NCBI GenBank assembly: GCA_020849535.1
Contig: JADLGB010000142.1
Coordinates: 2,688-66,687, forward strand
Origin: Candidatus Hydrogenedentota bacterium
Lineage (GTDB): Bacteria > Hydrogenedentota > Hydrogenedentia > Hydrogenedentales > SLHB01
DNA length: 64,000 bases
Direction: 5' to 3'
Shown here piece after piece: positions 9,378 to 62,082 of the stretch. The first letter of the stretch is position 1. Each line of letters begins with the position of its first letter. The notes under the pieces were generated by a model. The model had not been told where the DNA came from, did no database searches, and saw only the letters and a program-made list of their open reading frames with translations. The translations under genes and the position numbers were made by a program.

Positions 9378-10820
9378 ATGTCCAAGCAGGACCCCATCAT
9401 GCACGCCAGCGGCCTCGTGGCCAAGCTGGGGCTTTTCACTACCGTGATGATCATCATGGGCAACATGATCGGCTCGGGCATCTTCAAGAAGGCCGCGCCC
9501 ATGGCGGCGGAGTTGCAGTCGCCCGGACTGCTTCTCATCTGCTGGCTCATCGCGGGGGTCATCACCTTGTTCGGGGCGCTGACCTACTCCGAGATCGCCG
9601 GCATGATCGCCGAACCGGGCGGCCTGTACCAATACCTCAAGCGGATGTACGGACGCGGGTTCGCGTTTCTCTTTGGCTGGTCGTCATTCACCGTCATTCA
9701 GACGGCGTCCATCAGCTCCATCGCCTATGTCTTTGGCGAAAGCGCGAACGCGCTGTACGGATTCCCCCGGCTCGCGCCCGAGTACGAAGCATGGTCCATC
9801 TTCGGATTGTTTCAACCGCTCGATAACCTCGGCGTGAAGCTGTTCACCATCGCCACGATTGCGGCGCTCACAACGGCGAATTACTTCGGCGTTGTTTTTG
9901 GAGGCGTCATCGCCAGCATCTCGACGTGCGTGAAACTCGCGGGAATCGCCGTGGTAATCCTGCTTGGGCTGTCGCTCAGCGGCGGAACCTTCGACCACCT
10001 CGCGCCCCTGCTTGAGAATCCTTCCGCCGAATACCGCACCTCGCTCGGCCTCTTCGGCGCGATGTTCGCCGCGTTTCTGGGTGCGTTCTGGGCCTACGAT
10101 GGATGGACCAACGTAGCTTCCCTCGGGGCGGAAGTGCGCAACGCGAAACGGAACATCCCGCTCGCACTCGCAATCGGGACCTTCGGCGTCATGGGCGTGT
10201 ACATGGCCATCAACGCGGCGTACCTCTACGTCATGCCGGTAGAAGACATGGCCGCGTTGACTCAGACCAAGAACAGCATCGTTGCCGTGGAAGTCATGCG
10301 CCGCGCGCTGGGCGAGGGCGGCGCCACCTTCATCGCGGTGCTCATACTCCTGTCCACCTTCGGCGCGACCAACTGCCAGTTGATGCCCCACTCGCGCGTG
10401 TACTTCGCCATGGCACGCGACAATCTCTTCTTCCGGGCCGCGGGCAACTGCCACCCCCTGCACCACACCCCGTCCACCTCGCTGATCATCCAGGCGGTCT
10501 GGGCGTCGCTGCTGGTGTTGAGCGGCACCTTCGACCAACTCACCGACATGGTGATCTTCGCGTCCTTCATCTTCTATGGCGCGGGCGCCTTCGGTGTGTT
10601 CGTGCTCCGGCGCACCATGAAGGACGAGCCGCGCTCCTACCGCGTGACCGGCTACCCGTTTGTGCCTGCGGCGTTCGTCCTGTTCTGCTGCACGCTCGTC
10701 CTCGTGACCATCTACCAGGACCCGAAGAACGCCTGCATCGGACTCGTACTCGTGTTTTCCGGCATTCCGTTCTACTGGTACTGGCGCGGACGGGACGGGG
10801 CGCAATCCCGATACTCGTGA
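9378..10820 (+). CDS. APC-superfamily amino acid permease
   Basis: Start at ATG 9378. The product has about 12 TM helices. The N-terminal signature is LGLFTTVMIIMGNMIGSGIF and the core motif is GAFWAYDGWTN. Confidence 0.85.
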   Translation: MSKQDPIMHASGLVAKLGLFTTVMIIMGNMIGSGIFKKAAPMAAELQSPGLLLICWLIAGVITLFGALTYSEIAGMIAEPGGLYQYLKRMYGRGFAFLFGWSSFTVIQTASISSIAYVFGESANALYGFPRLAPEYEAWSIFGLFQPLDNLGVKLFTIATIAALTTANYFGVVFGGVIASISTCVKLAGIAVVILLGLSLSGGTFDHLAPLLENPSAEYRTSLGLFGAMFAAFLGAFWAYDGWTNVASLGAEVRNAKRNIPLALAIGTFGVMGVYMAINAAYLYVMPVEDMAALTQTKNSIVAVEVMRRALGEGGATFIAVLILLSTFGATNCQLMPHSRVYFAMARDNLFFRAAGNCHPLHHTPSTSLIIQAVWASLLVLSGTFDQLTDMVIFASFIFYGAGAFGVFVLRRTMKDEPRSYRVTGYPFVPAAFVLFCCTLVLVTIYQDPKNACIGLVLVFSGIPFYWYWRGRDGAQSRYS

Positions 10821-10949
10821 AGGAGAACCTACGCTACCATTGAATGTGTTGCGCACACTCAAACGCGCAATGTATTCTCTATCTCAAATTGGAACTGCCT
10901 TATCTATCTAACCTTACCAGGTACCCGACCGCCACCAAGAGGAGTCCTC

Positions 10950-12488
10950 ATGCACTTTGGATCTACTCAACTGTTGGCAGCATGTTTGCTTGTTCAGGGA
11001 CTAATGCCAGGTGCTTGGCCTCAAGAAGTTCTCAAGCCGAATTTCGCTGAACTAGAAGCGCGTTGGGAATCTGCACGCCAGACGATCGGGCTGCCCGGCA
11101 TGGCCATCGCAGTGGTCAAGGATGACAACGTATCATACGAGAGAGGCTTCGGATATCGCGATCTCGACTCGAAGGCACCATTCACTGCGAACACGGCATC
11201 CTACATCGCCTCCGTCACCAAGACCTTCGTGACATTTGCCGTAATGCAGCAAGTAGACGCTGGCAGAGTGGACCTCGATAGGCCCGTGAAATCATACCTG
11301 CCGAGATTCCAGCTTGCCGATCAGGAACTTACCCAGCGCATTACGGTGCGGGATTTGCTCTGCCATCGCTTTGGGTTGTCCAATTGGCCCATCACCTTCG
11401 CCGAAGCGTACACAGGCATTCTGAACGACGACTTCTTCTACCGAGAGCTTTCCAGGACCGATGTGAAAGGGTCCTGGGCTTACAGCAATTTGCACTTCAC
11501 GCTGTTAGGGCGTCTTGTCGAAGCGGTAACCGGCCAATCCTGGCAACACTACCTTCAGGAGCATGTGTTCCTACCGGCCGTGATGGATCACACCACCGCG
11601 CGGGCCAGCGAGCTGTACGCCATCGCCGATCACGCCACGCCCTATATCTGGAGGGACGGCGTATGGCGGGCAAGCTCTTTTCGCAAGGCCGATAGCACCA
11701 TGCACGCAGCGGGGGGTATCGGCTCGTCAGCCCACGACCTGGCGCTATGGATCCTGCTGCACCTGAATTCGGGAGCTCTCGAGGACAGGCGCCTTCTTAG
11801 CGACGCGGCTGTGACGCAGATTCTGACTGCGCAGGTCAAGCCGAAAAGCCGTTACTTCATGTTCGGCCGCAAAGAAATGGGGCTTGGGTGGTATCTTGGG
11901 GATTACAAAGACGATCTCCTTGTACATCACTTTGGTAGTTACGCGGGCGCCCACGCCCACGTCTCGTTCATGCCTGAGCACAAGCTGGGCGTGGCAGTTG
12001 TCACTAATTCCGACGAAGACATGGCTATGCTTGTGCACCTCATGGCGGCCGATGTCTATGACGCGTATCTCGGGCGTACGCCAAGCAGAGACCTGGGCCG
12101 TTTCGTCAGGAAAATGAAGCGGGGACGTGAAATGGCCAATAGGAAGATGAGGGAACTGCCGGCACATACCACCGCCTTGGCATTGCCAAAATCCTGTGAC
12201 GCCTACACGGGGACCTACCTCAGCGAATCGTGGGGGATTCTCGAAATATCTCGTGATGGCGACGGCCTTGCAGGACATGACGGCAACTTCCCCCTATCAT
12301 TCTATCAGGATGACCGCGGGGACGTTGTTGCAGACACACCCCTTGGAAACTTCCAGGTTGAGTTCATCGATGGAACTGAAGGCGGCATCGCCGGGATTCA
12401 CATTGTCATGAGCGGTGAAGCGACCATGTCCTTCTATAGGTGCCTGGGCGGGCCAAACACAGCCACAAAACGAAAGAGTGCTGAATGA
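10950..12488 (+). CDS. secreted serine hydrolase of the beta-lactamase/esterase (class C-related) family
   Basis: It has a signal peptide, with GAGGAG upstream of the ATG. The SxxK motif is ASVTKTF within a typical EstB/AmpC-like context (GFGYRD...TANTASYIASVTK). Confidence 0.8.
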   Translation: MHFGSTQLLAACLLVQGLMPGAWPQEVLKPNFAELEARWESARQTIGLPGMAIAVVKDDNVSYERGFGYRDLDSKAPFTANTASYIASVTKTFVTFAVMQQVDAGRVDLDRPVKSYLPRFQLADQELTQRITVRDLLCHRFGLSNWPITFAEAYTGILNDDFFYRELSRTDVKGSWAYSNLHFTLLGRLVEAVTGQSWQHYLQEHVFLPAVMDHTTARASELYAIADHATPYIWRDGVWRASSFRKADSTMHAAGGIGSSAHDLALWILLHLNSGALEDRRLLSDAAVTQILTAQVKPKSRYFMFGRKEMGLGWYLGDYKDDLLVHHFGSYAGAHAHVSFMPEHKLGVAVVTNSDEDMAMLVHLMAADVYDAYLGRTPSRDLGRFVRKMKRGREMANRKMRELPAHTTALALPKSCDAYTGTYLSESWGILEISRDGDGLAGHDGNFPLSFYQDDRGDVVADTPLGNFQVEFIDGTEGGIAGIHIVMSGEATMSFYRCLGGPNTATKRKSAE

Positions 12489-32444: not shown

Positions 32445-33428
32445 CTAACCCAAACCATAGTGCCCGATCTGGCGGGGGATCCCGTAATTGTGGTCCTTAT
32501 CGTCGATCACGGGGAATTCCGTGGGGTACTTGATGAACTCGACGTGGCCGTCCATGTACAGGATGTTGCAGCCCCCGGGAATGTGGTTGAACACCACGCC
32601 GCCCGCCGCCGCGCCAGCGTCGCCGAAACTTCCATAGGTGTCAAACATCACGACCAGATCGCTCTGCGCCTTCGCCCCCGCAGCCGGATTGTTGATGTCG
32701 GTCACCGCGAACCGCTCAACGCCCTCCTTCAAGCGAACCGCTTTGTCGCCCCCGGCGTACCCTGTGCCCAGGATCGCCGTCCACGCCAGCTTCGTGGCGA
32801 CAGAGAGGTCCTGGTCCCAATCCTTGGGCGTAACCGGCATGATGACCGGCGCCGTACCCTGAATCGTGTTCGCGGGATACACCGCCCCCGAAGCGGGCGT
32901 GGTGCCTGTGGCATTCCACATGCCGTAGAACTCGTCTACATTGGTAATCGCGAACCCATGGTACCAATACGAGCGCCCAATGTACGCGGCGAAGAAGTAC
33001 TGCTCGCTCAGGTCGTCCCCGTTTGCCCGCGCGGCCTCGACATGCCCGTCAATCGAGCCCGAGGGCAGACGGTCCGCGACCATGGCGCCCGCGCCATCCG
33101 CTTCGGTATCTGACGGACACTTCGACACCGCGAGGTCCGTCAGATACTCAGGATAAACCTCAAACGGATCCGGCGCGGCGAACACCGGTACGCCGCCGGG
33201 ATTGGCAAACGGCGCCACCGGCGGAAATTCATCCCGGTTCTCGCCAGCGTACATCTTGTAGATGATCCCGTACTGCTTCAGATTGCTCGCGCACGACGCG
33301 CGGCGCGCGGCCTCACGCGCCCGCGCCAACGCCGGCAACAGGATTGCCGCGAGGATGCCGATGATCGCAATGACCACCAGCAATTCGATCAACGTGAACC
33401 CTTCTGCAAACTTCTTTGACACGTGCAT
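32445..33428 (-). CDS. DUF1559 / H-X9-DG-type protein with prepilin-type N-terminal cleavage/methylation domain
   Basis: The N-terminus is [43 protein letters not shown] and the C-terminal motif is [25 protein letters not shown] lies upstream of the ATG. Confidence 0.9.
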
Positions 33429-33452
33429 GGTGACATCCTCCCCCTCAGGTTC

Positions 33453-33479
33453 GTATTACGAATCGCAGAATCGTAATAC
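33453..33479. promoter_or_regulatory. inverted repeat GTATTACGA-N9-TCGTAATAC in the 5' region of the DUF1559 gene
   Basis: It has perfect 9-bp arms (33453..33461 / 33471..33479), 25-50 nt upstream of the start codon at 33428. It shares the ATTAC/GTAAT half-site with the dyads in front of blaI. Confidence 0.45.
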
Positions 33480-33649
33480 TATCGGCCCCCAATGTCAAGT
33501 AACCTGTGCCCGATGGGCTGACAGGCGAGGGCACCTGTCCCACAAGTCTTTGTTCGTCCGCGCTGGTCCGTGCTTGTCCGTGGAACTGGTCTTTGCCCTG
33601 CTCCTGCGTGCCTTGCCAGGAAATTGTCCCACCCCCCCCTTGACTTTTG

Positions 33650-33686
33650 ATTACAGATGTAATATCTTATGAATTACACTTGTAAT
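33650..33686 (+). promoter_or_regulatory. two BlaI/MecI-type operator dyads (ATTACA-NN-TGTAAT) upstream of blaI
   Basis: Box 1 is ATTACAGATGTAAT (33650..33663) and box 2 is ATTACACTTGTAAT (33673..33686). A TTGACT -35-like hexamer lies at 33640..33645 and AT-rich -10 candidates are overlapped by box 1. The RBS GGAGG is at 33691..33695. Confidence 0.6.
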
Positions 33687-33701
33687 CCAAGGAGGCCGCC
33701 C

Positions 33702-34076
33702 ATGCCGAAAGTCCCCCAGATCTCCGAGGCCGAATGGGAAGTCATGCGCGTCTTGTGGGCGCGTGCGCCGCAGACCGCCAACGAGGTGTGTGCCGCGCTC
33801 GCGGACTCGACCACGTGGAGTCCGCGCACGATCAAGACCCTCCTGAACCGGCTGGTCAACAAAGGCGCGTTGAAATACAAGCCGCAGGGCCGCGCATACC
33901 ACTACCTGCCCGCCGTGAGCGAAAGCGCGTGTGTCCGCGCGGCGAGTAGGAGTTTTCTCAAGCGTGTATTCGGCGGCGCGCTGACGCCCATGCTTGCCCA
34001 TTTCCTCGAAGAAGAAAAGCTGAGTGCGGATGAGATCGCGGAGCTGAGGTCGATGCTCGACGAGCGGAGGGATTAG
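33702..34076 (+). CDS. blaI: BlaI/MecI/CopY-family transcriptional repressor
   Basis: Start moved to ATG 33702. The N-terminus PQISEAEWEVMRVLW...TANEVCAAL...WSPRTIKTLLNRLVNKGAL is the penicillinase-repressor winged helix. The stop lies 2 nt before the blaR1-like ATG. Confidence 0.9.
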   Translation: MPKVPQISEAEWEVMRVLWARAPQTANEVCAALADSTTWSPRTIKTLLNRLVNKGALKYKPQGRAYHYLPAVSESACVRAASRSFLKRVFGGALTPMLAHFLEEEKLSADEIAELRSMLDERRD

Positions 34077-34078
34077 CC

Positions 34079-37000
34079 ATGTCTACGTTCCTCTCAGGGC
34101 TTACGTCGGCGTTTGATGCCGTCATCCAAACGACGCTACAGGCGACGGTCCTGGCCGCGCTGATCCTCATCTTGCAGCGGCTGCTGCGCAAACGCCTCAC
34201 GCCGCGCTGGCACTACGCGTTGTGGCTGTTGGTGCTGGCGCGATTGTTCTTGCCATGGACCCCTGAAAGCCCCACCAGCCTCTTCAACTATGTCCGCACG
34301 GAACAGGCATCAACTACCCAGTTGCTGCTGGCGATCCCTGACATTGAGTACATGTCATTTGATGGGCCACCTGAGGTGAGCGCCATGCCGCCGCTACCGG
34401 ACCGGGCAGTCGAAATCACGGACTCCACGCCCGCTATCGGCCTCTCGTGGAACGATGGGCTGCGCCTGGGTTGGCTGGGCGTCGCGGCGATCCTCTTCCT
34501 GTACGTGTGCGCGGTGAACGGTTCGCTGTGGTGGCGCGTGCGGCGCGAACCTGCCATCGACGACGGCCCGGCCGCTTTCGAGTTCGCGTCGTGCAAGGAA
34601 GTGATGGGGGTTCGCGATGCGATCCGCCTCGTGCGCACGAGCCGCGTCTCCACGCCTGCCCTGCTCGGCCTGCTGCGTCCACGCCTGCTCCTGCCCGAAT
34701 CGATGGAGCGCGCGTTGTCACGCGAAGAGCTGCGCCATGTGTTCTTGCACGAACTCGCCCACTACCGCCGCGGCGATCTCCTCGTGAACTGGCTGATGGT
34801 CGCCTGTAACATCGTCCACTGGTTCAACCCCGCGCTCTGGTACGCCTTTCACCGCATGCGCGCCGATCGCGAACTCGCCTGCGACGCCCTCGCCATGAGC
34901 TACATCGCGCCGGAGGACACGTCTTCCTACGGCCGCACCCTGCTGCGCCTGCTCGAACACGTCGCCCGCCCGCGCCCTTTGCCCGGCCTCGTTGGCGTCC
35001 TCGAACGCAAATCGCACCTGAAGAAGCGCATACGCGGCATCGCCGGCTTCAAACCCGGCTCCTATCGATGGTCGGTCTTGGCCGTCGTGCTGATCGCTGT
35101 GTTGAGCGCCGTCGCGTTGACCAATGCGTCATCGAAGGAAGCGGCGGAAGGAATGCCAGCGTCTTCGCTCGCACCGGATGACAATGCTCCCGAACCGCTT
35201 GTGAGTACTATCGGTGTCGTCGAGACCGATAGCCAGGACAAGTCTCCAACGCAGCTTTCGGACCTTGGCGCCCTGCTCACGGAGGATCAAACGCGCATCG
35301 AACCGATTGGGGATCCTTCGTCACATGAGCCGTTCGACCCCAGCGGCCAAGGCGAGAATGTGGCTACGGTCAATTCGGATGCGGCCTCGACGCATACCGG
35401 TGAACTGGACGCACTCGTTGAGAACACCGGATACCGAAACGAGACGGCCGAAGACGCGCACGATGCGAAGCCCGAAAGTGAGGCGGCGTTACCCTATCCT
35501 CCCGTTCAGATCGATTTCGGAGAGGGAAACACGTTGACGGCCGATTCTGCCCGGCTGGACATGGCCACGTTAGAACTGGAGCTCGTGGGGACCATCTTTC
35601 TCGACAAGCACTCGGGGTCTGATCTTCGAGTCAGTAAGGGCACGGCTTCACTGACACTGGATGGACCTCAGAAAGGCGCCCTGCGTGATATCAAGGGCGA
35701 AGATGTCGAGATGTTGGAGGACCTTTCTCCAGTAACTCCCGATGAGACGAAGGTGCTCAAAAGTCGTGACGAGAGCGAGCCACACGGGGTCTACATTCGG
35801 CACGGGGACGCCACGTTCATCGCCGATACGATGCTTCTCGATATGGAGTCGAGCGAGATCAAGCTGGCCGGACATATTCAGTTCAGCTCCGATACCGTTC
35901 GCGAAGGCCGCGCCGGCGAGGTGCGCCTCAACTTCCTTACGGGCAAAACAGAGATGGCAGGCCTGGTCGCTGAAAGTATAGAGCGGGAGGGTTCACGAGA
36001 GCCTCGACAGGCAAGCCCCGGCGCACTCTACACCTTGTCGGAGTCCGAGCGAATTCGTGAGGGTCTTCCGAAGCCGCAAATAAACGTCCTTGTGCCCCCT
36101 TCGGATCAGAACCCACGCGGGTATGCACTGATCAATTCCGAGAAGGTCTACGTTGGGGACAGGATTCCTGAGACTGGAGATGCGCCCACCCAGGCCAATT
36201 CGAAAGAAATTGTGCTTAAAGACGTCGATCTGGACGGCATCATTGTGGAGCGCGATGGGCGAGGGTACCGCGTCGGCACGCAAGGCTCCGTGTGGAGGCT
36301 GTTGCCGAAGGACAATGGTGCGGAGCACACCTCTGTATCCGCAAAGGAGGGTGATTCTGCAGCAGCCAGCCCGAAAGACTTGACTGGAGCAGGCGAGACA
36401 ATCGGTACGGATCAGGAGTTGTTCACGATCGAGTTTCAATCGTTCCGCCTATCTCGAAAGGATTTGGATAGCGTAATCGAGGATTGGGTTGAGTTGCCGG
36501 AAATCGAGAGATTGTACGGTGAATCGCGAGTCTTCTCAGTGCCTTCGTCATTGGTTCGTCCGGTCGAAGCTGTCACAGGCGCAACGCGGTTGGGAGGACA
36601 AATCTGTTGCGTACCGTGTGGGGCGCTGGAGAAGTATGGTGTGACCATTAGCGATGGGGAACCTGGGTTTGCCTGGGATCTCACGATTCCACGCAGGCAT
36701 GCCTCAGACAACGAACATCCCTCCGCTCCGATACAGATCAGAAACCCTATGGAATCCTTCATGCGAAACATTGAGCAAAAGTGCACCGACTACGGCGAGG
36801 CCGAAACCGCAATTACCCTCCCTGGGATAGAAACGGGTCCAGGCGGCAGGATGCTACTTGAGGTGCTCTGGCGAACAAAGGACCTCGAGTTCGGTGATAC
36901 CAAGTACCACGGGGTCTTCGCAAAGTTCCCCGTTCGGTTCGGTGAATGGACCGCAATCACCTTCCCCAAGACCCGCATGCAGCACTATCTCGTCTTTGCC

Positions 37001-39142
37001 CGCGTAACCGAAGGCAGGGCCGGTTTTGACGCCGCAGCGGCAGTCGCTTCATCCATGAAGAACGCGTCTGAGCGCTCCGCCGAATCCCCGGCGCTTCCGA
37101 GTCCCGACGTGACAGCGAAGCTGGATAGTCCGATCTCACTCGAGTTCGAGGGCGAGCATCTCACCGCGATCACGGCATTCATGGCTTCCTACTTAGGATT
37201 GTCTATCGAGCTGGACAGCAAGGTTATTGCGCCGAAAGGTAGTACGCCCGCCGAGAGCGCCGCGTACGCGACAAATGGCATCGTGCCGTACGTGAAGTTG
37301 GCGGACGTTCCATTCAAAGACGCTTTGAAGGCCCTCCTCCGTCCGCTGGGTCTTGCCTACGAGATGCGCGGCAATACGGTGTACATCTCGACCCCCGATC
37401 GCTTGTCCGCGCAGGAAGCTGTTGACGAATCCCAGGAGCGCCCGAAGGTGGAGGACGTGAAAGTCTCCGTCACGTTTCCCGAAAACACGACGCTCATGGA
37501 GGCCGCCGCCAAACTGGTTGACGCGGCCGATGTGAACATCGTAGTCGACCGCCGCGCCGTCCATCCCGAAGGTGGCAATGGCTCCGACCCAACGGAATGG
37601 ATGGTGCCACCGCGCGAGATCAAAGGCGCGCTCCTCATCGACGTGCTCTGGGAAATGCTCGAGCCCCTGGGCCTGACCTTCGCAGTGCAACCCGGTTTCA
37701 TCTGGATCAGCACCCCGGATCGCATCGCCACCGAGACTTTCGAAGTACTCGAAACGCGGCGCTATCCTCTGGAACTCATCCGCGAGCTGAACGGCAATGC
37801 GGCCAGCCGCGCGGAGTCTCTGGCTGACATACGGCGCATGGTTCGTGTCACTGAACCGGACTCGCTGAAGACGCTGTCATTCGCGCGCATCATTGAAGAA
37901 GATGGCGTACTCGAAGTCCGCAGCGCGCCCACCCATTTGGATCAGTTGGAGCAAAACCTCCTCCTTTACGAGAGCGCGAATTCGACACAGACTGCTGAAA
38001 ACGCTGGTGCTGAGGCACATGAAGATGCGGCTGCCGGGACCGGGGACGAGACTTCACTCGAGCACCATACAGCGAGCCCGGTAACAAGCGCCACTATCGA
38101 CTCGAGTCTCCAGCAGGCGTGCAACGAACTGCTCCGCGAATTGGAGGGTTCGATCGTGGTATTGAATGCGGACTCCGGCGCGGTGCTGGCCATGGCAGGC
38201 TCAGCGGCGGCTGAGTCCAACGATATCCTCCATCCCGCCTACCAAGAGGCCTATCCGCCGGGGTCCTTGTTCAAGGTGCTGCTGGCGATCGCGGCCTTGG
38301 AGGAGGGGATCATCACAGAAGAGACGACTTTCGGGTGCAGCGGGAAATTCTATCTACCGGGTGTTGCGCGGCCGTGGCGCTGCTGGCGCTTAATGTACGG
38401 CGGCCACGGCGGGGTGAACGTCGTCGATGCGTTGGCGTACAACTGCGATGTGTTCTTCTACAACGTCGCGCTGAAACTGGGACCGGAGAAGATCAAGGAG
38501 TGGTCAAGCAGACTCGGGCTTGGCGTGCCTACGGGGATCGATCTGCCGGGAGAGGCCGTCGGACTCATCCCCGACCCCACGTGGAAGAAAGAAGCCGCAT
38601 CAGCCGCCGGCAAGACTGAAACTTGGGAAAAGAACTGGTACCCCGGCGAGACCGTCAATCTGGGCATCGGCCAAGGTGCGGTGAGCACAACCATGCTACA
38701 GAATACCGCCCTGATGATGTCCATCCTGAACGGTGGACGTCGCGCGCAGCCCTTCACACAAGGAGACGTGCTCCCCACGCTTTCCGAACCCCTGGTGAGC
38801 GAAGAGACTCTGCGCATCGTTCAAGCGGGGTTGCGCAAGTGCGTCGAGAGGGACAAACCCCCGCCAACGGGCACGGGAAAAGAGGCCAGAATTGAAGGAT
38901 TCGACATCCTCGGCAAGACGGGCACCGCGCAGGTCGTCCAAACCTTGAAGGCGAAACACTACTCAAATGAAGAAGACATGCCCTACGAACAACGCGACCA
39001 CGCGCTGTTCATCGCGGGGGTGATGGACCGGTCACCGCGTATCGCCGTGGGTGTGTTCATCAAACACGGCCTGCATGGCAGCTCGACCGCGGCGCCTATT
39101 GCCCGCGCCGTGATTGCGGAGTTCTACGGAGGCGGCACCTGA
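34079..39142 (+). CDS. giant BlaR1-family M56 metalloprotease / signal transducer with C-terminal PBP2-type transpeptidase (penicillin-binding) domain
   Basis: 1687 aa. The N-terminal M56 module has TM helices and the zinc motif HELAH (34748..34762). A further TM helix (WSVLAVVLIAVLSAVAL) is followed by about 1000 aa of extracytoplasmic sequence. The last ~345 aa (from ~38105) are a transpeptidase domain with SLFK (Ser 38264..38266), NCD (38441..38449) and KTGT (38915..). This domain is strongly similar to mrdA at 62079.. Confidence 0.9.
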   Translation: MSTFLSGLTSAFDAVIQTTLQATVLAALILILQRLLRKRLTPRWHYALWLLVLARLFLPWTPESPTSLFNYVRTEQASTTQLLLAIPDIEYMSFDGPPEVSAMPPLPDRAVEITDSTPAIGLSWNDGLRLGWLGVAAILFLYVCAVNGSLWWRVRREPAIDDGPAAFEFASCKEVMGVRDAIRLVRTSRVSTPALLGLLRPRLLLPESMERALSREELRHVFLHELAHYRRGDLLVNWLMVACNIVHWFNPALWYAFHRMRADRELACDALAMSYIAPEDTSSYGRTLLRLLEHVARPRPLPGLVGVLERKSHLKKRIRGIAGFKPGSYRWSVLAVVLIAVLSAVALTNASSKEAAEGMPASSLAPDDNAPEPLVSTIGVVETDSQDKSPTQLSDLGALLTEDQTRIEPIGDPSSHEPFDPSGQGENVATVNSDAASTHTGELDALVENTGYRNETAEDAHDAKPESEAALPYPPVQIDFGEGNTLTADSARLDMATLELELVGTIFLDKHSGSDLRVSKGTASLTLDGPQKGALRDIKGEDVEMLEDLSPVTPDETKVLKSRDESEPHGVYIRHGDATFIADTMLLDMESSEIKLAGHIQFSSDTVREGRAGEVRLNFLTGKTEMAGLVAESIEREGSREPRQASPGALYTLSESERIREGLPKPQINVLVPPSDQNPRGYALINSEKVYVGDRIPETGDAPTQANSKEIVLKDVDLDGIIVERDGRGYRVGTQGSVWRLLPKDNGAEHTSVSAKEGDSAAASPKDLTGAGETIGTDQELFTIEFQSFRLSRKDLDSVIEDWVELPEIERLYGESRVFSVPSSLVRPVEAVTGATRLGGQICCVPCGALEKYGVTISDGEPGFAWDLTIPRRHASDNEHPSAPIQIRNPMESFMRNIEQKCTDYGEAETAITLPGIETGPGGRMLLEVLWRTKDLEFGDTKYHGVFAKFPVRFGEWTAITFPKTRMQHYLVFARVTEGRAGFDAAAAVASSMKNASERSAESPALPSPDVTAKLDSPISLEFEGEHLTAITAFMASYLGLSIELDSKVIAPKGSTPAESAAYATNGIVPYVKLADVPFKDALKALLRPLGLAYEMRGNTVYISTPDRLSAQEAVDESQERPKVEDVKVSVTFPENTTLMEAAAKLVDAADVNIVVDRRAVHPEGGNGSDPTEWMVPPREIKGALLIDVLWEMLEPLGLTFAVQPGFIWISTPDRIATETFEVLETRRYPLELIRELNGNAASRAESLADIRRMVRVTEPDSLKTLSFARIIEEDGVLEVRSAPTHLDQLEQNLLLYESANSTQTAENAGAEAHEDAAAGTGDETSLEHHTASPVTSATIDSSLQQACNELLRELEGSIVVLNADSGAVLAMAGSAAAESNDILHPAYQEAYPPGSLFKVLLAIAALEEGIITEETTFGCSGKFYLPGVARPWRCWRLMYGGHGGVNVVDALAYNCDVFFYNVALKLGPEKIKEWSSRLGLGVPTGIDLPGEAVGLIPDPTWKKEAASAAGKTETWEKNWYPGETVNLGIGQGAVSTTMLQNTALMMSILNGGRRAQPFTQGDVLPTLSEPLVSEETLRIVQAGLRKCVERDKPPPTGTGKEARIEGFDILGKTGTAQVVQTLKAKHYSNEEDMPYEQRDHALFIAGVMDRSPRIAVGVFIKHGLHGSSTAAPIARAVIAEFYGGGT

Positions 39143-39144: not shown

Positions 39145-39289
39145 GAGACCGGCGGGGGTGCCTGCCCCACATGTCTTTCTCCAGCGGTATGTACGCCGCG
39201 ATCCTTGAAGCACTGGGGCAGACTTGGGCAGAAGAGAGAAAGACAGAGGCCGGGCAAGCGCGTGTGGCACAGGCGCCCTCGCCTGTGTC
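39145..39289. repeat. inverted pair of family A palindromic repeats immediately downstream of the blaR1-like gene
   Basis: The forward copy is 39145..39175 (GAGACCGGCGGGGGTGCCTGCCCCACATGTC). The inverted copy is 39258..39289 (GCGCGTGTGGCACAGGCGCCCTCGCCTGTGTC). The architecture matches 8096..8325. Confidence 0.8.
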
Positions 39290-39416
39290 TTTGTCTGCCA
39301 TCTGCCTGAGTTTGAAATCCATTTCGCTGTCTTCGCGCGAAACCATAGATGGCCCTGCAAGAGCCAAGGTCCTGGCGCCGCACCTTCAGCGCTCAAGAAC
39401 AAGAGCTTATCGGATA

Positions 39417-39470
39417 CCCAGGGTGGCGCTTCGCTCTGCCCTGGGCTGATATGGTTTCGGCCCTTCAGAC
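39417..39470. repeat. single family C unit
   Basis: It comprises the CCCAGGGTGGCGCTTCGCTCTGCCCTGGG hairpin plus GGCCCTTCAGAC. Compare 24177..24241. Confidence 0.65.
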
Positions 39471-39557
39471 TTCAAGAGTGGGGGGCCACATTCTCGTTGG
39501 ATTCCCTCTTCATTCTCTTCCTTAACGTCTTGGCGAGAGGTTCTTCTTCGCACGCCC

Positions 39558-42338: not shown

Positions 42339-43592
42339 ATGCTTTGCCTCCTTGTGGCGGCGTGCCTGAGCGCGCCGGACATCGTCTTTCTTTCCGTAGA
42401 CACGTTGCGGGCGGACCGCCTTGGGTGTTACGGGTACGAATTCGACACCTCGCCCAATGTGGACCGCTTGGCGGAGGGCGCGCTGCTCTTCGAGGATTGC
42501 GTCACGGAAGTGCCGCTGACCTCGCCCTCTTTTGGCGCCATGATGACGTCCCGGTTCCCGCGCATGAACGGTGCCGCGCGCAACGGTCTTCCGTTGCCCG
42601 ACGACATCCCCACGCTCGCCGAAGAACTGAAGAAGGCTGGCTATCAGACCTTCTGTGTGCAGAGCAATTGGACACTGAAAGCGCCGCTGTGCGGGCTCGC
42701 GCGCGGATTCGACACCTATGAGGACGGCTTCAACAAGAAGCGCTGGGGCGTGTTGAAGTCGGAGCGCTACGCGGATGAGGTCACCCGCATCGCCCTGGAT
42801 CTTCTGGCGAAACGCGACCCGGCCAAGCCGCTGTTCTGCTGGATCCACTACTCGGATCCGCACGCGCCGTACCGTTTTCACAGCCGCTTCAATCCCGGCG
42901 ATCGCACCCTGCGCAAGCTGGATGAAACCGGGCAGACGCGGGTGCGGTATGACTCGGAAGTCGCCTACACGGATTCGCACATCGGTCAGATTCTGGCGGC
43001 CGTGCCGCAGGAAGCCGCGGTCGTGTTTGTCGCGGACCATGGCGAGAGTCTCTACGAGCACGATTACCTCGGCCACGGACGCCGCGTGTACCAGCACGAA
43101 GTGCGCATCCCCCTGATCATTCGCGGACCCGGCGTGAGCGCGGGAAGATCCCAAACGCCGGCGCGCGGTATTGATATTGCCCCGACGATCTTGGGCCTCG
43201 CCGGGCTTCCCAAGGTGGAAGGAATGCTGGGCGCCGACCTTTTGAAGGATTCGCTGCCCATGGATCGCGTGCGCGTGATTGAAACGTACGGCGGGGCGGT
43301 TCCCCGCATTCCAGGCGCCAAGGCGCTGATGGCCTCGCGGCCGCCGATGCGGCAGGCCGTCCTCGCGGAGCGCTGGAAGCTGATCCTGGACGGAAGCCGG
43401 CCCGAGCTGTTCGACCTCAGTCAGGACCCTTCCGAGTTGACGGACCTGGCCCAGAACCAGCCTAGTCACACGGAGAACCTGACCAAGCTCATTGCGGATT
43501 GGGATCAGGCGGTCTCCAAGCTCGACGCGACCGAAGCGGAACTTAACCAGGACGATATCGAGGCGTTAGAGAGCCTGGGCTACGTGGAGTGA
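42339..43592 (+). CDS. sulfatase-like hydrolase/transferase (alkaline phosphatase superfamily)
   Basis: The metal-site motif is VFLSVDTLRADRLGCYGY. The nucleophile region reads PLTSPSFGAMMTSRFP, with Thr where sulfatases have Cys/Ser. Later motifs are HYSDPHAPY and FVADHGE. Confidence 0.8.
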   Translation: MLCLLVAACLSAPDIVFLSVDTLRADRLGCYGYEFDTSPNVDRLAEGALLFEDCVTEVPLTSPSFGAMMTSRFPRMNGAARNGLPLPDDIPTLAEELKKAGYQTFCVQSNWTLKAPLCGLARGFDTYEDGFNKKRWGVLKSERYADEVTRIALDLLAKRDPAKPLFCWIHYSDPHAPYRFHSRFNPGDRTLRKLDETGQTRVRYDSEVAYTDSHIGQILAAVPQEAAVVFVADHGESLYEHDYLGHGRRVYQHEVRIPLIIRGPGVSAGRSQTPARGIDIAPTILGLAGLPKVEGMLGADLLKDSLPMDRVRVIETYGGAVPRIPGAKALMASRPPMRQAVLAERWKLILDGSRPELFDLSQDPSELTDLAQNQPSHTENLTKLIADWDQAVSKLDATEAELNQDDIEALESLGYVE

Positions 43593-44684
43593 GTCGCCGT
43601 TGAACAGCGGCAGCGGATCCACGGGGACATCGTTCTTGCGCACCTCAAAGTGAAGATGGGGCCCGGTCGCGCGGCCGGTGCTTCCCACCTGGGCGATGGC
43701 CGTATCGGTCGTCACCACATCACCCGCCTTCACCAGATTCTTCGACGCATGCCCATACACCGTGTGCATGCCGTTCGGATGCTCGACAATCACCATCTTC
43801 CCGTAACCGGGCCGCCACCCGCTGAACGTCACCTTGCCCGGCATGGAGGGATAAATCTCGGTTCCCGCCTTCGCGGCGATGTCCAGTCCCTGGTGGAACT
43901 GCGGACGGCCCGTGAAGGGGTCGGTTCGCATGCCGTATTTCGAGGTGAGACGCGCCGGTCCCCCGAGCACTTTGGACCACGGGCTGCCCGGCAAGATGAC
44001 CGTGTCGGAGAATGAGCCCGGTTCCAGGATCGATTGCATGAGGCCGGTGATATCGACGCCGCGGCTGGCCGCCGCGGGCTCGACGACGGTGTCCTGTGAA
44101 AGCGCGCGGGCCGCGGACGTGCCGTGGGGAACGATTGGAGGCGCCGACGCCCGGGCCCTACTCGTCGCCATCGGCAGATTCATCTTTCCGTACCCAACGC
44201 GCCGGGGTTCATTGGGCATCTTCAAGCCGGCCTTCTCCTGAGGCATTGCGGGTCCGCCCTTCTGGGCGGGCATAGAGATCTGCTCCGGCTCCGCGCCCTT
44301 TGGGAGGGGCGCCGCGCGAAAAGCGCTCGACAATTGGCTCAGGGTGGGTGCGGGGCGTTCCGTCGTCAGGGCGGCCAAGTCCAACTTCTGACCCACCGAC
44401 AGGCGGTCAGGATTCTTGAGCCCGGCTTCCTTCGCAAGGCGCGTGACGGCGGAGTGGATTTCCGCCTTGGTCGGCTTCTTGCCCTGAGCACTGAGGTGGT
44501 CACGGCAGATCTGCCACAGGTTCTCGCCCTCAGTGACGGTGTGGGTGACGGTCTTGCGGCTCGAGGAATCGCTCCGCACCTTCTCGATGAATTCGTGAAA
44601 AGCGGCAGGGGGCGTGGTCGCTATCGGCAGCAGCCCCGGAACCGGTTGCGCGCCCTGTTCGCCTGTGATTGGTACGATCCGCAT
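43566..44684 (-). CDS. LysM-domain M23 family metallopeptidase
   Basis: It has a LysM-like segment (TVTEGENLWQICRDHL...LSVGQKLDL). The C-terminal M23 motifs are HQGLDIAAKAGTEIY, VIVEHPNGMHTVYGH and GSTGRATGPHLHFEV. Its 3' end overlaps the convergent sulfatase-like gene by 27 nt. Confidence 0.85.
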   Translation of the reverse strand: MRIVPITGEQGAQPVPGLLPIATTPPAAFHEFIEKVRSDSSSRKTVTHTVTEGENLWQICRDHLSAQGKKPTKAEIHSAVTRLAKEAGLKNPDRLSVGQKLDLAALTTERPAPTLSQLSSAFRAAPLPKGAEPEQISMPAQKGGPAMPQEKAGLKMPNEPRRVGYGKMNLPMATSRARASAPPIVPHGTSAARALSQDTVVEPAAASRGVDITGLMQSILEPGSFSDTVILPGSPWSKVLGGPARLTSKYGMRTDPFTGRPQFHQGLDIAAKAGTEIYPSMPGKVTFSGWRPGYGKMVIVEHPNGMHTVYGHASKNLVKAGDVVTTDTAIAQVGSTGRATGPHLHFEVRKNDVPVDPLPLFNGDSLHVAQAL

Positions 44685-48580: not shown

Positions 48581-48779
48581 CTGTTCGCGGAGCCTGCCTG
48601 CCCCTTCCGCGCATATCATGGCGGCCGTTTCTCTTGCACTTCCCCTGCTCCCGCCGCGTCTCGCCCGTGAGGTGGCATGGGCATCCCTGCCTATGGTCTT
48701 CGACTCGTGCAACCTAGTCCTACAACGCGGGATTGTCCATAGACAGAATGCCATAAGATGAATTCGATGAATGTCTTCG

Positions 48780-56858: not shown

Positions 56859-57503
56859 ATGAGCACTCATCCGATCCGTTCCACTAACGTATATGCCGCC
56901 GTCTTGCTGTTGGCTATTCTTGCCGGCGCCTGCGCGACCTCTGCGCGCACCGCATCACACGCCGATCTCGTGGAACTGGTGGACGTCATCCCGGACATCC
57001 TGCTCGATATCAAATACGCCACCACGGACAACTTCACGGGCAAGGTGGTGTATCCTGCCGCGCGATGCTTTCTCGTCCGCGATGCCGCGGAGGCGCTAGG
57101 TGACGTGCAAGAGGACCTTCGCCCCCTTGGGTATCGGCTCAAGGTGTTTGACGGTTACAGGCCGCTCTCCGTGCAGCGAATCTTCTGGAGCATCTTGCCC
57201 GACCCAGCTTATGTGGCGGACCCGGCCAAGGGGTCGCGCCACAATCGCGGGTACGCGGTGGATCTGACGCTCACAGACCTGCAGGGCCATGAAGTAGCGA
57301 TGCCTTCTGGCTACGATGACTTCAGCGAGCGAGCACATCGCGATTACCTCGCGCTCCCCGCGGAGGCCATTGGGCACCGCGAAATCCTGGAACAGATCAT
57401 GGTCCGCCACGGCTTCATCCCCTTGCCCACCGAGTGGTGGCACTTCGACTATCGGGGGTATGAGAACAAACCCAATCTGGATATTCCATTCGACGAACTG
57501 TAA
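56859..57503 (+). CDS. VanX/DdpX-type D-alanyl-D-alanine dipeptidase (M15D) with N-terminal export signal
   Basis: The motifs are IKYATTDNFTGKVVY, FDGYRPLSVQ, SRHNRGYAVDL (zinc ligands) and EWWHFDY. The N-terminus VYAAVLLLAILAGACATSA is hydrophobic. GAGGAAG lies upstream of the ATG. Confidence 0.85.
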   Translation: MSTHPIRSTNVYAAVLLLAILAGACATSARTASHADLVELVDVIPDILLDIKYATTDNFTGKVVYPAARCFLVRDAAEALGDVQEDLRPLGYRLKVFDGYRPLSVQRIFWSILPDPAYVADPAKGSRHNRGYAVDLTLTDLQGHEVAMPSGYDDFSERAHRDYLALPAEAIGHREILEQIMVRHGFIPLPTEWWHFDYRGYENKPNLDIPFDEL

Positions 57504-59270: not shown

Positions 59271-60791
59271 TCAGGCAGTGACCTCCTGGCGGGTGCGCGC
59301 GCTGAGAATCTTCATGTCGTGTATGTGGAAGTCCGAAACGGATTCAATGGCAATCTCGCGGTCAAACTTCTGGGCCACGTCGTCCAGCAACTCCTTGTTC
59401 TCCGTGCGCAGCCGCCGGGCCACATCGGGGTGGAGCTGGAGAATCAGGCGCTTTTCCTTGGATTTGCAGAAGAGTGTGTGCAACTTGCGGATCGTGTCGA
59501 ACGTCATCGTAGTCACCGAGCGGACCATACCGCTCCCTTCGCAATAGGGACAGGGCTGAGAGAGCGCCTTGACGAGGTTGTGTTTTACGCGTTTCCGGGT
59601 CATCTCGATCATGCCCAATTCGCTGATCTCCGAAATCGTCGTCTTGGCGCGATCGTTCTGGAGGCATTCCTGGAGTTTGCGGATGAGTTCCTTGCGGTTC
59701 TTCTCATACTGCATGTCGATGAAATCGATTACGATGATGCCGCCCAGATCGCGCAGGCGCACCTGGCGCGCGATTTCCTCGGCGGCGTCGAGGTTGGTCT
59801 TGAGAACGGTTTCTTCGAGATGCTTGGTGCCCGTGAAGCGGCCGGTATTGACGTCGATGGCGACGAGGGCCTCGGTCTGATCGATGCAGATGTGGCCACC
59901 GCTCTTGAGATAGACCCTGCGGTGCAGCGCCTTCTCGATTTCTTTCTCGATGTTGAACTTGTCGAAGATGGGGCGCTTGCCGTTGTACAGCTTGACGCGC
60001 TTCTTCAGGTTTGGCGCGAACTTGTCCAGGAACTCGAGGATGCTCTTCTCCTCGGCCTCGCTGTCGATGGTGAGTTTCTCGACATCGCGCGTGAACAGAT
60101 CGCGCACCATCCGCAGGATGGGGCTGAGGTCTTCGTGCAGGAGGCACGGCGCCTTCATGGTCTCCATCTTGTCCTTGATGTCGGTCCACACGGTACTCAG
60201 GTATTTGATGTCGTCCTGGAAGTCACCCTTCTTTTTGCTCTCGCCGGCGGTGCGCAGGATCATGCCGAGGCCGGGCGGCCGGATCGATTGCAGGGTCTTG
60301 CGCAGGCGTTCGCGTTCGCGCTCGCTGCCGATCTTGCGCGACACGCCGAGGTGTTTCACCGTCGGCATCAGCACGATGTAGCGGCCGGGCAAGGTGACGT
60401 AATTCGTGAGGCGGACGCCCTTGGTGCCCAGCGTGTCCTTGCTGACCTGCACCATGATGTGCTGGTTCTTCTTGAGTAGCGTCTCGATGCTGGGAGGCTT
60501 GCCGCGCTGGGACCGCTCTTTGGGCTTAGCCGTGCCTTCCTCGAACACGAAATCGCCGGTGCCCTCCGCTCCCGCGATATCGGACACGTACAGGAAGCCG
60601 TTCTTCTCCAAACCGATGTCGATGAACGCCGCTTGGATGCCTGGCACGATCGAGTCCACTCGGCCCTTGTAGATGTTACCGACGACGCTGCGGCTTTCGT
60701 GACGATCGATCAGCAATTCAGTAAGCCGCTTTTCCTCGATGAGCGCGATGCGTGTTTCGAGCGGTTCCACATTGATGATGAATTCCTTCAT
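59271..60791 (-). CDS. rng: Rne/Rng-family ribonuclease (RNase G)
   Basis: 506 aa. It has an S1 domain (GNIYKGRVDSIVPGIQAAFIDIG) and the catalytic core motifs ALVAIDVNTG and GGIIVIDFIDM. Confidence 0.9.
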   Translation of the reverse strand: MKEFIINVEPLETRIALIEEKRLTELLIDRHESRSVVGNIYKGRVDSIVPGIQAAFIDIGLEKNGFLYVSDIAGAEGTGDFVFEEGTAKPKERSQRGKPPSIETLLKKNQHIMVQVSKDTLGTKGVRLTNYVTLPGRYIVLMPTVKHLGVSRKIGSERERERLRKTLQSIRPPGLGMILRTAGESKKKGDFQDDIKYLSTVWTDIKDKMETMKAPCLLHEDLSPILRMVRDLFTRDVEKLTIDSEAEEKSILEFLDKFAPNLKKRVKLYNGKRPIFDKFNIEKEIEKALHRRVYLKSGGHICIDQTEALVAIDVNTGRFTGTKHLEETVLKTNLDAAEEIARQVRLRDLGGIIVIDFIDMQYEKNRKELIRKLQECLQNDRAKTTISEISELGMIEMTRKRVKHNLVKALSQPCPYCEGSGMVRSVTTMTFDTIRKLHTLFCKSKEKRLILQLHPDVARRLRTENKELLDDVAQKFDREIAIESVSDFHIHDMKILSARTRQEVTA

Positions 60792-60903: not shown

Positions 60904-62082
60904 TCAGGCGAAAAACCCTTTTCTCACATGGACACTCAACACCGTGCCCACGCACATCATAGTCGTAACGTAGAAAGAGCCGCCGTAGCTCAGGAAAGGC
61001 AGCGGCAGCCCCGTGACGGGCAGCAGATTCAGGGTGATCGCGATGTTCACAAGCACATGGAACGCGATCACGCTGACGCTGCCCAGGGCAAGCAGGCCCC
61101 CGGCAAGGTCGGGGCAGTCCCGGGCGAGGGATAGACCCCGCAACAGGAACAGGGCATAGAGCCCGATGAGGATCACGCCGCCGACGAAGCCCATCTCCTC
61201 CGCGAAGAGGGCGAAAATGAAGTCCGTGTGGTACACCGGCAGGAAGCGCATGTGGGTCTGGGTGCCCTTGCCGAAACCCTTGCCCCACATCTGGCCGCTG
61301 CCCACGGCGATCTTGGTCTGGGTGATTTGATATCCAGCGTCCTTGGCGAAGTTGGGGTCCGCCTCCGGGTGGAAGAAGGACACGATGCGGGTCTTCTGGT
61401 GATCCTTGAGGGGCAGATGGTCCAGATTGAAGTACGCCAGCGGCGCGATGGTGCAACCGGCCAACACGATGGCCAGGATGTGCCGGCGGCGGCAACCGGC
61501 GGCGAACAGCATTACAAAGACCAGCGGAGATGCGACAATGGCGGTGCCCAAGTCGCCCTGGATCAGGATCAACAGGATCAGAACCCCCGCGATGGCCAAG
61601 GCCCCAATGAAATAGGCGAGCTTGTAGATGCGCTCCTGGTAGCGTGATAGATACCAGGCCAGCGTGTAGATGAGCGCCACCTTGCTGAACTCCGAGGGCT
61701 GGAGTTGCACGCCAAGTACACGGAGCCAGTGCTGGCCGCCCATGGCCGTGAACCCGATGAGCGGTACCGCGATCAGGAGCAAGACCGCCAGCCCATAGAA
61801 GAACGGCGCCATGGACACAAGCGCCCGGTAATCCATACATGCGATCAGCACCGCCATCAGGATTCCGAGGGTGCAGAAGAGGATCTGCTTCACGTAGTAC
61901 TTTGAAAAAAACGCCACATCCGCCGCGGCGCTTTGGCTGGCGCTATACAGCGTGAAGAGACCGGCGATCGACAAGGCCAGTGTGAGGCCCACCAACAGCC
62001 AGTCCAGCCGACGCAGGTTACGGTAGTTGAACGTGTGGATGTGGGCTTCCAGCAGGTTGAGATCGCGCTCGATCCGGCTCAT
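60904..62082 (-). CDS. rodA: rod shape-determining SEDS protein RodA
   Basis: It belongs to the FtsW/RodA/SpoVE family, with about 10 TM segments. The motifs are QPSEFSKV, HTDFIFA and PLPFLSYGGS. It has an ATGA overlap with mrdA. Confidence 0.9.
   Translation of the reverse strand: MSRIERDLNLLEAHIHTFNYRNLRRLDWLLVGLTLALSIAGLFTLYSASQSAAADVAFFSKYYVKQILFCTLGILMAVLIACMDYRALVSMAPFFYGLAVLLLIAVPLIGFTAMGGQHWLRVLGVQLQPSEFSKVALIYTLAWYLSRYQERIYKLAYFIGALAIAGVLILLILIQGDLGTAIVASPLVFVMLFAAGCRRRHILAIVLAGCTIAPLAYFNLDHLPLKDHQKTRIVSFFHPEADPNFAKDAGYQITQTKIAVGSGQMWGKGFGKGTQTHMRFLPVYHTDFIFALFAEEMGFVGGVILIGLYALFLLRGLSLARDCPDLAGGLLALGSVSVIAFHVLVNIAITLNLLPVTGLPLPFLSYGGSFYVTTMMCVGTVLSVHVRKGFFA

Follow-up and report, generated by a model that had tools for sequence, protein, structure and literature searches.

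The BlaI/BlaR1 pair is a textbook example of receptor signaling by repressor cleavage and serves as a model for inducible β-lactam resistance. Here we describe an unusual member of this family in a 64,000-nucleotide stretch of DNA from a Candidatus Hydrogenedentota bacterium (contig JADLGB010000142.1, positions 2,688 to 66,687; the whole of this stretch is called the window below). A blaI-like repressor gene is followed on the same strand by a single open reading frame (ORF) for a blaR1-like receptor, which joins an N-terminal M56 zinc-metalloprotease membrane module to a very long arm, predicted to be extracytoplasmic, that ends in a transpeptidase domain of the penicillin-binding protein 2 (PBP2, or MrdA) type (Table 1). 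Judged by the sequence of both partners, the link to BlaI in this system is correct and the receptor is a variant of the BlaI/BlaR1 family.

Table 1. Features of the operon and of other parts of the window (positions are those of the window).
Feature	Position	Strand	Residues, basis or remarks
Sigma-70-like operon promoter (TTGACT, 17 nt, TATCTT)	33640..33668	+	Consensus scan, sequence read
Operator dyad 1, ATTACAGATGTAAT, BlaI/MecI/CopY type	33650..33663	+	Overlaps promoter spacer and -10 hexamer
Operator dyad 2, ATTACACTTGTAAT	33673..33686	+	In 5' leader, 23 bp from dyad 1
blaI-like winged-helix repressor gene	33702..34076	+	124 residues from ATG 33702; mechanical ORF start 33669
blaR1-like receptor gene	34079..39142	+	Single ORF, 1687 residues
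M56 zinc-metalloprotease membrane module	34079..35128	+	Residues 1-350; Pfam, 8EXS alignment, hydropathy
M56 module, HELAH	34748-34762	+
M56 module, ADRELACD	34862-34885	+
M56 module, last transmembrane helix	35072-35119	+
Acidic low-complexity linker, then β-rich region without detectable homolog	35129..36331	+	Residues 351-751
Domain D (FTIEFQSF...)	36332..37078	+	Residues ~752-1000; conserved periplasmic domain
Predicted secretin-like module	37121..37972	+
Secretin-like module, STN/N0-like 1	37121-37405	+
Secretin-like module, STN/N0-like 2	37457-37726	+
Secretin-like module, N1-like	37733-37972	+
Acidic Ala/Glu/Thr-rich linker (fusion junction)	37973..38086	+	Sequence, hydropathy
PBP2-derived transpeptidase domain	38087..39139	+	Residues 1337-1687; Pfam, NCBIfam and PDB matches
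Site of 22-residue deletion, after AMAGSAAA	38189-38224	+	PBP2 alignment
Transpeptidase motif SLFK	38264-38275	+
Transpeptidase motif NCD	38441-38449	+	Ser→Asn
Transpeptidase motif TMLQ	38690-38701	+	Pro→Met
Transpeptidase motif KTGT	38915-38926	+
Terminator-like hairpins closing the operon	39155-39168, 39266-39289	+	Second hairpin is REP-like
rng (RNase G)	59271-60791	-	RNase_E_G
rodA	60904-62082	-	FTSW_RODA_SPOVE
Canonical mrdA/PBP2 with pedestal	62079-63983	-	PBP_dimer and Transpeptidase; 5' end at window edge
Acido-Lenti-1 copies	3555-3601 (-), 3776-3821 (+), 4535-4579 (-), 4766-4812 (+)		Rfam

The translated receptor reads through its entire length without interruption. Peptidase_M56 (PF05569) covers residues 15-319 (E 1e-61; 209 bits, with the cut-off at 31), with HELAH at residues 224-228 and ADRELACD at residues 262-269; HELAH and E264 align with the zinc site of Staphylococcus aureus BlaR1 (HEYAH, 201-205, and E242; PDB 8EXS), an alignment that shows the predicted M56 active site to be intact. 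Hydropathy peaks at residues 14-36, 128-146 and 332-350, together with a weaker one judged by eye at about 42-60, place the HExxH motif between the predicted third and fourth transmembrane (TM) helices, a topology that fits the four-TM layout of BlaR1 and in which everything from residue 350 onward is predicted to be extracytoplasmic. The blaR1_generic equivalog model (NF000326), whose cut-off is 400 bits, scores 186 bits and covers only profile positions 4-324 of 585, which is its M56 half. The module is 86% identical to that of a protein from a Hydrogenedentes metagenome-assembled genome (MAG; P0002) and 75% identical to that of the gene at locus L001, and an exact search for the window protein among public assemblies found no record.

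The C-terminus matches Transpeptidase (PF00905) over residues 1357-1679 (E 1e-51). Its best NCBIfam model is pbp2_mrdA (TIGR03423), at 289 bits against an equivalog cut-off of 455 and over profile positions 297-591 of 593 only; because the match begins at position 297, the pedestal is missing. Consistently, the pedestal family PBP_dimer (PF03717) has no match in the receptor, and the transpeptidase domain carries no TM anchor of its own. All of its PDB matches at E<=1e-10 are class B PBPs (MrdA/PBP2, SpoVD, PbpB and PBPA, with MrdA reaching E 1e-41), and there is no class D enzyme, OXA or BlaR1 sensor among them. This assignment matters, as the class-D-like sensor of BlaR1 also matches PF00905 and the combination of PF05569 with PF00905 is the canonical BlaR1 architecture (PMC12516126; PMC13081940): what discriminates the architecture is the subfamily assignment and not the presence of the domains.

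A likely source of the domain lies on the same contig. A canonical mrdA-rodA pair, which forms an operon with rng, is found 23 kb from the fusion gene, in a region syntenic with loci L003 and L005, and BLASTP aligns the fused domain with this PBP2 at 65% identity from PBP2 residue 243 to its end. The homology starts at T1339, where TIDSSLQ stands opposite TLDIGLQ at residue 243, and identity rises to 71% over 307 core columns, the highest value among the matches listed from a search of a 5.8-billion-sequence collection. The next relatives are PBP2s of other Hydrogenedentes. Since the nearest match is the PBP2 of the window itself, followed by those of its lineage, by homology the fused domain and the housekeeping PBP2 are intralineage paralogs, the former being cut at the boundary between pedestal and transpeptidase. 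The two copies differ by a nonsynonymous divergence (dN) of 0.25 and a synonymous divergence (dS) of 1.46 (dN/dS 0.17), and are 75, 81 and 48% identical at the three codon positions; these values of dS and dN/dS indicate an old duplication and purifying selection on the copy. In identity to outgroup PBP2s, the fused domain falls about 6 points below the canonical copy. It is not paired with rodA, the genes downstream of the receptor being Thioredoxin_9 and truA on the opposite strand. Three relatives were considered as orthologous fusions and rejected. The loci of two of them (P0133 and P0137) were fetched and hold PBP2 genes truncated by a contig edge, followed by an unannotated gene fragment in P0133 and by rodA in P0137; the third (P0132) is nearer to the canonical PBP2 of the window (79.5%) than to the fused domain (68%).

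Against an alignment of 114 PBP2 homologs, in which columns conserved at >=95% were taken as highly conserved, the fused domain keeps about 45 of about 50 such columns and alters five (S1374G, P1376A, a deleted Phe, S1455N and P1539M). The deleted Phe belongs to a 22-residue deletion that takes out the P-x-Y-D-P-x-x-F segment of class B PBPs. The SxxK motif (SLFK, residues 1396-1399, with S1396 and K1399) and KTG (residues 1613-1615 of KTGT, 1613-1616) are intact, and in motif 2 (NCD, residues 1455-1457) the Asp is retained. The motif-2 Ser, here replaced by Asn, relays a proton to the leaving group during PBP acylation. Because this Ser is lost while SxxK and KTG are kept, slowed catalysis would be expected rather than an obviously dead site; and with the class-B segment lost as well, while the nucleophile Ser, the Lys and KTG remain, the domain most likely serves to bind a ligand, its catalysis being attenuated, and no longer works as a cross-linking enzyme. 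The retained motif-2 Asp is a signature of class B2 PBPs (PMC4810414).

The arm between the last TM helix and this domain begins with an acidic linker (residues 351 to ~470) and a region without detectable homologs (~470-751). Neither L001 nor the related MAG contig L002 has a counterpart of receptor residues 478-751, and single-sequence AlphaFold2 (AF2) prediction of residues 461-1050 gave an unusable model (predicted local distance difference test, pLDDT, 33). Impressions gained on reading, that residues ~470-640 resemble LptA/OstA-type repeats and ~680-750 PilP/GspC HR domains, were unsupported and were dropped. Domain D, which follows, is common to P0002 (55%) and to P0121 in L001 (38%); in L001 it follows the STN module, and in the window it precedes it. 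When the spacer was compared with Pfam in four pieces at E<=5, nothing appeared besides STN, at 27.1 bits against a cut-off of 28.4 and near residues 1073-1105. An AF2 model of residues 1015-1298 built with a 10-sequence alignment reached pLDDT 73, and its best Foldseek matches in the PDB are nearly all secretin N0-N1 domains (PilQ, XcpQ/GspD, InvG, EscC and MxiD) or the signaling domains of TonB-dependent transducers (FpvA and PupA), at probabilities of 0.95-0.99 and E ~2e-3, with low TM-scores (~0.2) as the model is multi-domain. The model thus points to a secretin-like N0-N0-N1 module within the spacer. The GC content at third codon positions (GC3) of the spacer (residues 351-1290) is 0.67, below that of neighboring gene segments.

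The repressor matches Penicillinase_R (PF03965; 130.8 bits, E 4e-38), aligns over its full length with MecI (1SD6) and BlaI (1SD4), and has its stop codon 2 nt ahead of the receptor ATG. As an AAGGAGG ribosome-binding site (33688-33694) precedes ATG 33702, this codon is more likely the true start than 33669. With 147 bits against a cut-off of 180 for the exception-level model BlaI_of_BCL, and no CopY-type C-terminal Cys motif in its sequence, the protein is to be classed as a member of the BlaI/MecI/CopY family and not as a named equivalog; the missing Cys motif, together with the presence of an M56 partner, also rules out a CopY-type copper repressor.

TACAnnTGTA is the classical BlaI/MecI/CopY box. 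It occurs twice in the 64-kb window, where 0.08 sites are expected by chance; both sites are perfect and both lie at the promoter of the operon. Paired boxes with the same 23 bp spacing also stand ahead of blaI in L001 and L002, and a single box in L009 and L010. Given the operators at the promoter, the 2-nt spacing of the genes and the terminator-like hairpins after the receptor stop codon, blaI and the receptor are read as a self-contained, autoregulated two-gene operon. A GC-rich hairpin repeat with the core GGCACAGGCGCCCTCGCCTGTGTC, which looks like a repetitive extragenic palindromic (REP)-like element or a terminator, is intergenic at 39252-39305, 8165-8329 and 48669-48700 of the window, and recurs in L002 at 69-96, 4427-4473, 7187-7248, 7336-7389 and 7441-7472. 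Among other genes related to the cell wall, a PF00144 gene of the serine β-lactamase/DD-peptidase family (512 residues; 10950-12488, +) was considered as a linked β-lactamase target and rejected, having no operator box; a VanX-like M15 D-Ala-D-Ala dipeptidase (56859-57503, +) and an M23 peptidase with LysM (43566-44684, -) likewise have no TACAnnTGTA.

An earlier note on this DNA, made from the letters alone, had described much of this arrangement: an ORF of 1687 residues 2 nt behind a blaI-like gene, an M56 module closing with a TM helix near residues 331-350, and a PBP2-type transpeptidase domain without its pedestal. The uninterrupted reading frame, the Penicillinase_R and M56 matches, the hydropathy peak at 332-350 and the partial pbp2_mrdA match in a protein lacking PF03717 bear all of this out. 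Its ~1000 residues of extracytoplasmic sequence have the length claimed but are not featureless, since the secretin-like N0-N0-N1 module is predicted inside them, and its motif list (SLFK, NCD and KTGTA) was accurate but passed over the fact that NCD replaces an invariant Ser of PBP2. Both PF05569 and PF00905 are detected by the profile search that it proposed; as evidence of novelty, however, this search does not discriminate, the same pair being found in canonical BlaR1.

Fusions of M56 with class B PBP domains are not confined to the window. When P0090 (M56, PBP_dimer and transpeptidase) was run with HMMER against the full set of 1.84 billion representatives, M56 and transpeptidase were found to occur together in 18 of the best 150 clusters at 50% identity, which with P0090 makes at least 19 other fusion clusters (representatives within P0252-P0377; related loci L004 and L009-L013). 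At all five fusion loci examined, blaI lies immediately upstream. By Pfam the pedestal is full, partial or absent in 10 of these fusions; those without it include P0307, P0257, P0365 and P0328, the last (MBN1905310.1, auto-annotated as 'penicillin-binding protein 2', from a Deltaproteobacteria MAG) being present in two independent assemblies. At least one catalytic residue has been lost in 14 of the 19, the nucleophile Ser in six, and the Ser→Asn change in motif 2 is shared by P0090, P0252 and P0253, hence by 4 of 20 fusions with the window protein included. Like the window, other fusions (P0328, P0090, P0252, P0308 and P0270) have blaI followed by M56 and a class-B-PBP-type transpeptidase. 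They differ from it in joining the transpeptidase or pedestal to TM4 directly or through ankyrin repeats (which in P0252 lie between M56 and the pedestal), none of them having the STN spacer; and in many the site is fully dead, the nucleophile Ser or the Lys being gone, whereas the window copy keeps both. Because its transpeptidase is nearest to the PBP2 of its own contig and only ~27% identical to that of P0090, the window fusion is judged to have arisen independently of the others. The claim in the earlier note of a chimeric, novel architecture is right as regards a sensor of class B2 and not of the class-D-like type, but was overstated, as such fusions recur. Our literature searches found no paper on a characterized M56–PBP2 fusion, nor one that characterizes any of the other M56–class-B-PBP proteins.

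Compared with the BlaR1/MecR1–BlaI/MecI systems of S. aureus and B. licheniformis, the window has the same autoregulated operon with blaI ahead of blaR1, the same Penicillinase_R repressor with TACAnnTGTA operators, the same four-TM M56 protease with HExxH...E, and likewise an extracytoplasmic C-terminal domain of the penicilloyl-serine transferase superfamily with a PF00905 match (PMC9834060). The sensor of BlaR1, in contrast, is class-D-β-lactamase-like, whereas that of the window is of class B2 PBP (PBP2) type and 65% identical to the host PBP2; the window further differs in its motif 2 (N-x-D), in a spacer of ~1000 residues with N0/N1-like domains between TM4 and the transpeptidase, in the lack of a linked β-lactamase or PBP2a gene, and in a BlaI scissile site of H|F, not N|F. 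CenIR of C. difficile and BlaR of M. tuberculosis are, like the window, BlaI/M56 pairs with a non-canonical sensor, and CenIR and other non-canonical BlaIR systems control cell-envelope genes and not β-lactamases (PMC13081940). CenR, however, has a short disordered extracellular tail, and the window receptor a very large, predicted-folded periplasmic arm ending in a PBP domain. With the PBP2 (MrdA) of the Rod system the fused domain has in common the transpeptidase fold and sequence and the class B2 Asp of motif 2; it differs in having no TM anchor or pedestal, in not standing beside rodA, in the replaced motif-2 Ser and in the 22-residue deletion.

We lean, with moderate confidence and by analogy with BlaR1, toward an intact autoregulated operon of the blaI–blaR1 family in which the transpeptidase domain is the sensory input. 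It is plausible that this domain senses β-lactams or peptidoglycan stem peptides. Its pocket would be filled by a stem peptide ending in D-Ala-D-Ala or acylated by a β-lactam; the signal would be relayed by the periplasmic arm, and then by TM4, to the M56 protease, whose site faces the cytoplasm; the protease would, as its homology to BlaR1 suggests, cleave the BlaI-like repressor; and the cleavage would free the two operators at the operon's own promoter together with unlinked regulon members elsewhere in the genome. BlaR1 itself cleaves BlaI directly once its sensor site is occupied (PMC9834060). Sensing of stem peptides may possibly be non-covalent, in line with the many dead sister domains. 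More speculatively, and here we are doubtful, the receptor could be a direct monitor of peptidoglycan cross-linking, in which a transpeptidase slowed at motif 2 and carried on an N0/N1 arm at the peptidoglycan or outer membrane reports the supply of D-Ala-D-Ala donors or their blockade by β-lactams, and M56–class-B-PBP fusions at large would be widespread pseudo-PBP sensors, mostly without covalent catalysis.

Most 'BlaR-like' proteins lack the canonical sensor and probably respond to other cues from the envelope (PMC13081940). The present locus and some 20 clusters of M56–class-B-PBP fusions suggest that the M56 switch has repeatedly captured the cross-linking domains of the cell itself, which often then lost catalytic residues; within this recurrent but uncharacterized set, the window fusion is unusual for its secretin-like spacer. 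Should their ligands be stem peptides or β-lactams, such domains would be natural sensors of cell-wall status and a source of parts for β-lactam or muropeptide biosensors. Because one contig carries both the donor mrdA and the derived domain, the window offers an unusually clear view of what accompanied the conversion of an enzyme into a putative sensor: the TM anchor and pedestal were lost, the motif-2 Ser became Asn, and 22 residues were deleted.

Several observations weigh against the transpeptidase domain as the sensory input. The column of the motif-2 Ser (SCD→NCD) is 100% Ser among the 114 PBP2 homologs, and the change may abolish acylation; in view of both the Asn and the 22-residue deletion, acylation competence of the domain is not to be assumed. 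The arm beyond TM4 is ~1340 residues long with the transpeptidase included, which places that domain ~1000 residues from TM4; the BlaR1 sensor rests directly on the membrane loops (PMC9834060). The scissile site of MecI, N101|F102, corresponds to H|F in the window BlaI. No other gene in the 64-kb window has a TACAnnTGTA box, any β-lactamase or PBP gene included, and the fusion junction is a singleton, no second copy having appeared in protein, genome-contig or metagenome-contig searches. The closest orthologous M56 genes, in L002 (88% nucleotide identity) and L001, both do without a transpeptidase domain, which is therefore dispensable for the core signaling of this ortholog group, and the modeled N0-N0-N1 module or domain D could be the true signal input.

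This last point leads to the alternative that survives best, a minority view that we take seriously: the BlaI/M56 switch is real, its input is the N0-N0-N1 module, domain D or the region without homologs, and the transpeptidase is auxiliary or only tethers or localizes the arm to nascent peptidoglycan. Besides the two orthologs, it is favored by the many M56 proteins of Hydrogenedentes and Planctomycetota that have STN and no transpeptidase (P0004, P0007, P0008, P0081, P0112, P0124 and P0125), and by the fold matches, in which STN/N0 appear as protein-protein signaling domains of TonB-dependent transducers and secretins. The C-terminal regions of M56 proteins are in any case extremely varied; a 2026 preprint lists 254 InterPro architectures, and CenIR, which controls envelope genes, is a BlaIR system without a transpeptidase domain (PMC13081940). 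Set against this are the purifying selection on the fused domain and its almost complete active-site signature, as well as the separate lineages that have fused class B PBP modules straight behind M56 with no other domain (P0328, P0307, P0257 and P0365); since such direct fusions have arisen repeatedly in independent lineages, a PBP transpeptidase can plausibly act as a sensor.

The same orthologs bear on the history of the receptor. M56–STN proteins of Hydrogenedentes and Planctomycetota (P0002, P0121, P0004, P0008, P0124 and P0125) have an M56 module orthologous or paralogous to that of the window, share domain D and STN-STN-N1 with it, and are preceded by BlaI with identical operator geometry; unlike the window, none has a transpeptidase, and the order and content of domains differ at every locus. 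L002 has M56, CarboxypepD_reg-like repeats, domain D, STN1 and then a stop; L001 has M56, STN1, STN2, N1 and domain D; and the window has M56, the region without homologs, domain D, STN1, STN2, N1 and the transpeptidase. Because the split between the fused domain and mrdA, much the older, predates that between the window and L002, the simplest history is that L002 lost STN2-N1-transpeptidase in one deletion, or else that these loci are recombination mosaics. In L001 (ERZ25039549:contig_97683, 8920-12070) the M56 gene is itself called as two genes, of 380 and 689 residues, owing to an apparent +1 frameshift near 9750 that reflects either a sequencing error or a pseudogene.

That the transpeptidase has no function and is decaying, as the remnant of a chance duplication or fusion, is quite improbable. 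The loss of an invariant catalytic Ser together with the deletion could mark early decay, and the greater distance from outgroup PBP2s and the singleton status of the fusion in the searches run would fit. A dN/dS of 0.17 over a dS of ~1.5 argues otherwise, as do some 350 codons without a stop or frameshift and the ~45 of ~50 highly conserved columns retained, SxxK and KTG among them.

The pedestal and TM anchor of a class B PBP mediate its pairing with RodA. Against that background we think it highly unlikely that the receptor is bifunctional, its transpeptidase being a working DD-transpeptidase or carboxypeptidase anchored by M56 and independent of signaling. The intact SxxK and KTG and the retained class B2 Asp of motif 2 (PMC4810414) would allow such activity; the motif-2 Ser, however, is gone, the domain has neither pedestal nor TM anchor, rodA is found beside the canonical mrdA at another place in the window, and most sister fusions are catalytically dead.

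The fusion itself could in principle be an artifact, namely a chimera of assembly or binning, or two genes joined by a sequencing error that hides a stop codon. The junction falls in a low-complexity linker and is present in no independent assembly searched: a scan of genome contigs returned only a distant Streptococcaceae PBP, one of metagenome contigs only two ~34% transpeptidase matches over query residues 160-258, and a homology search with residues 900-1687 gave 12 matches, none covering both STN and transpeptidase. The orthologous fusions in related MAGs that the earlier note proposed to look for did not appear in these searches, the nearest orthologs lacking the transpeptidase; the ORF is uninterrupted. 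The flanks speak for a genuine gene. The left flank (33453-35139 and 36914-37412) is collinear with L002 at 86-88% nucleotide identity, and a conserved non-coding element of ~100 nt (39375-39477), unique in the window and without an Rfam match at gathering score, matches L002 4699-4798 at 82% identity, where it lies behind the M56 gene at the same position and in the same orientation. Had the receptor been misjoined to mrdA, rodA should follow it; the sequence that follows matches the M56 locus of L002 instead, and the contig carries the canonical mrdA-rodA as a separately assembled pair. The fused domain is 68% identical to mrdA in nucleotides, and because their longest exact shared word is 17 nt, no repeat is seen that could cause a misjoin. 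Tetranucleotide composition varies little along the window (r 0.90-0.96), the PBP2 homology begins in frame and exactly at the transpeptidase boundary, and the private changes of the fused domain (N1455 and the deletion) occur in no canonical PBP2 of the alignment. From these sequence comparisons we give an artifact very little credence and hold the fusion to be very probably genuine, with misassembly unlikely.

Other features of the window lie apart from the receptor. A mechanical ORF of 136 residues (33262-33672, +), which extends over the divergent intergenic region and the promoter of the operon, looks low in complexity and unlike a gene, and is probably none. DUF1559/N-terminal-methylation proteins are typical of Planctomycetota and Hydrogenedentota, and one such type IV pilin-like protein is encoded by the divergent neighbor of the operon (32445-33428, -), with a promoter-like site at 33498-33470. 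Near the start of the window, four Acido-Lenti-1 small RNA (sRNA) motifs of Rfam are clustered within 1.3 kb, with scores of 38-54 bits that are all above the gathering score.

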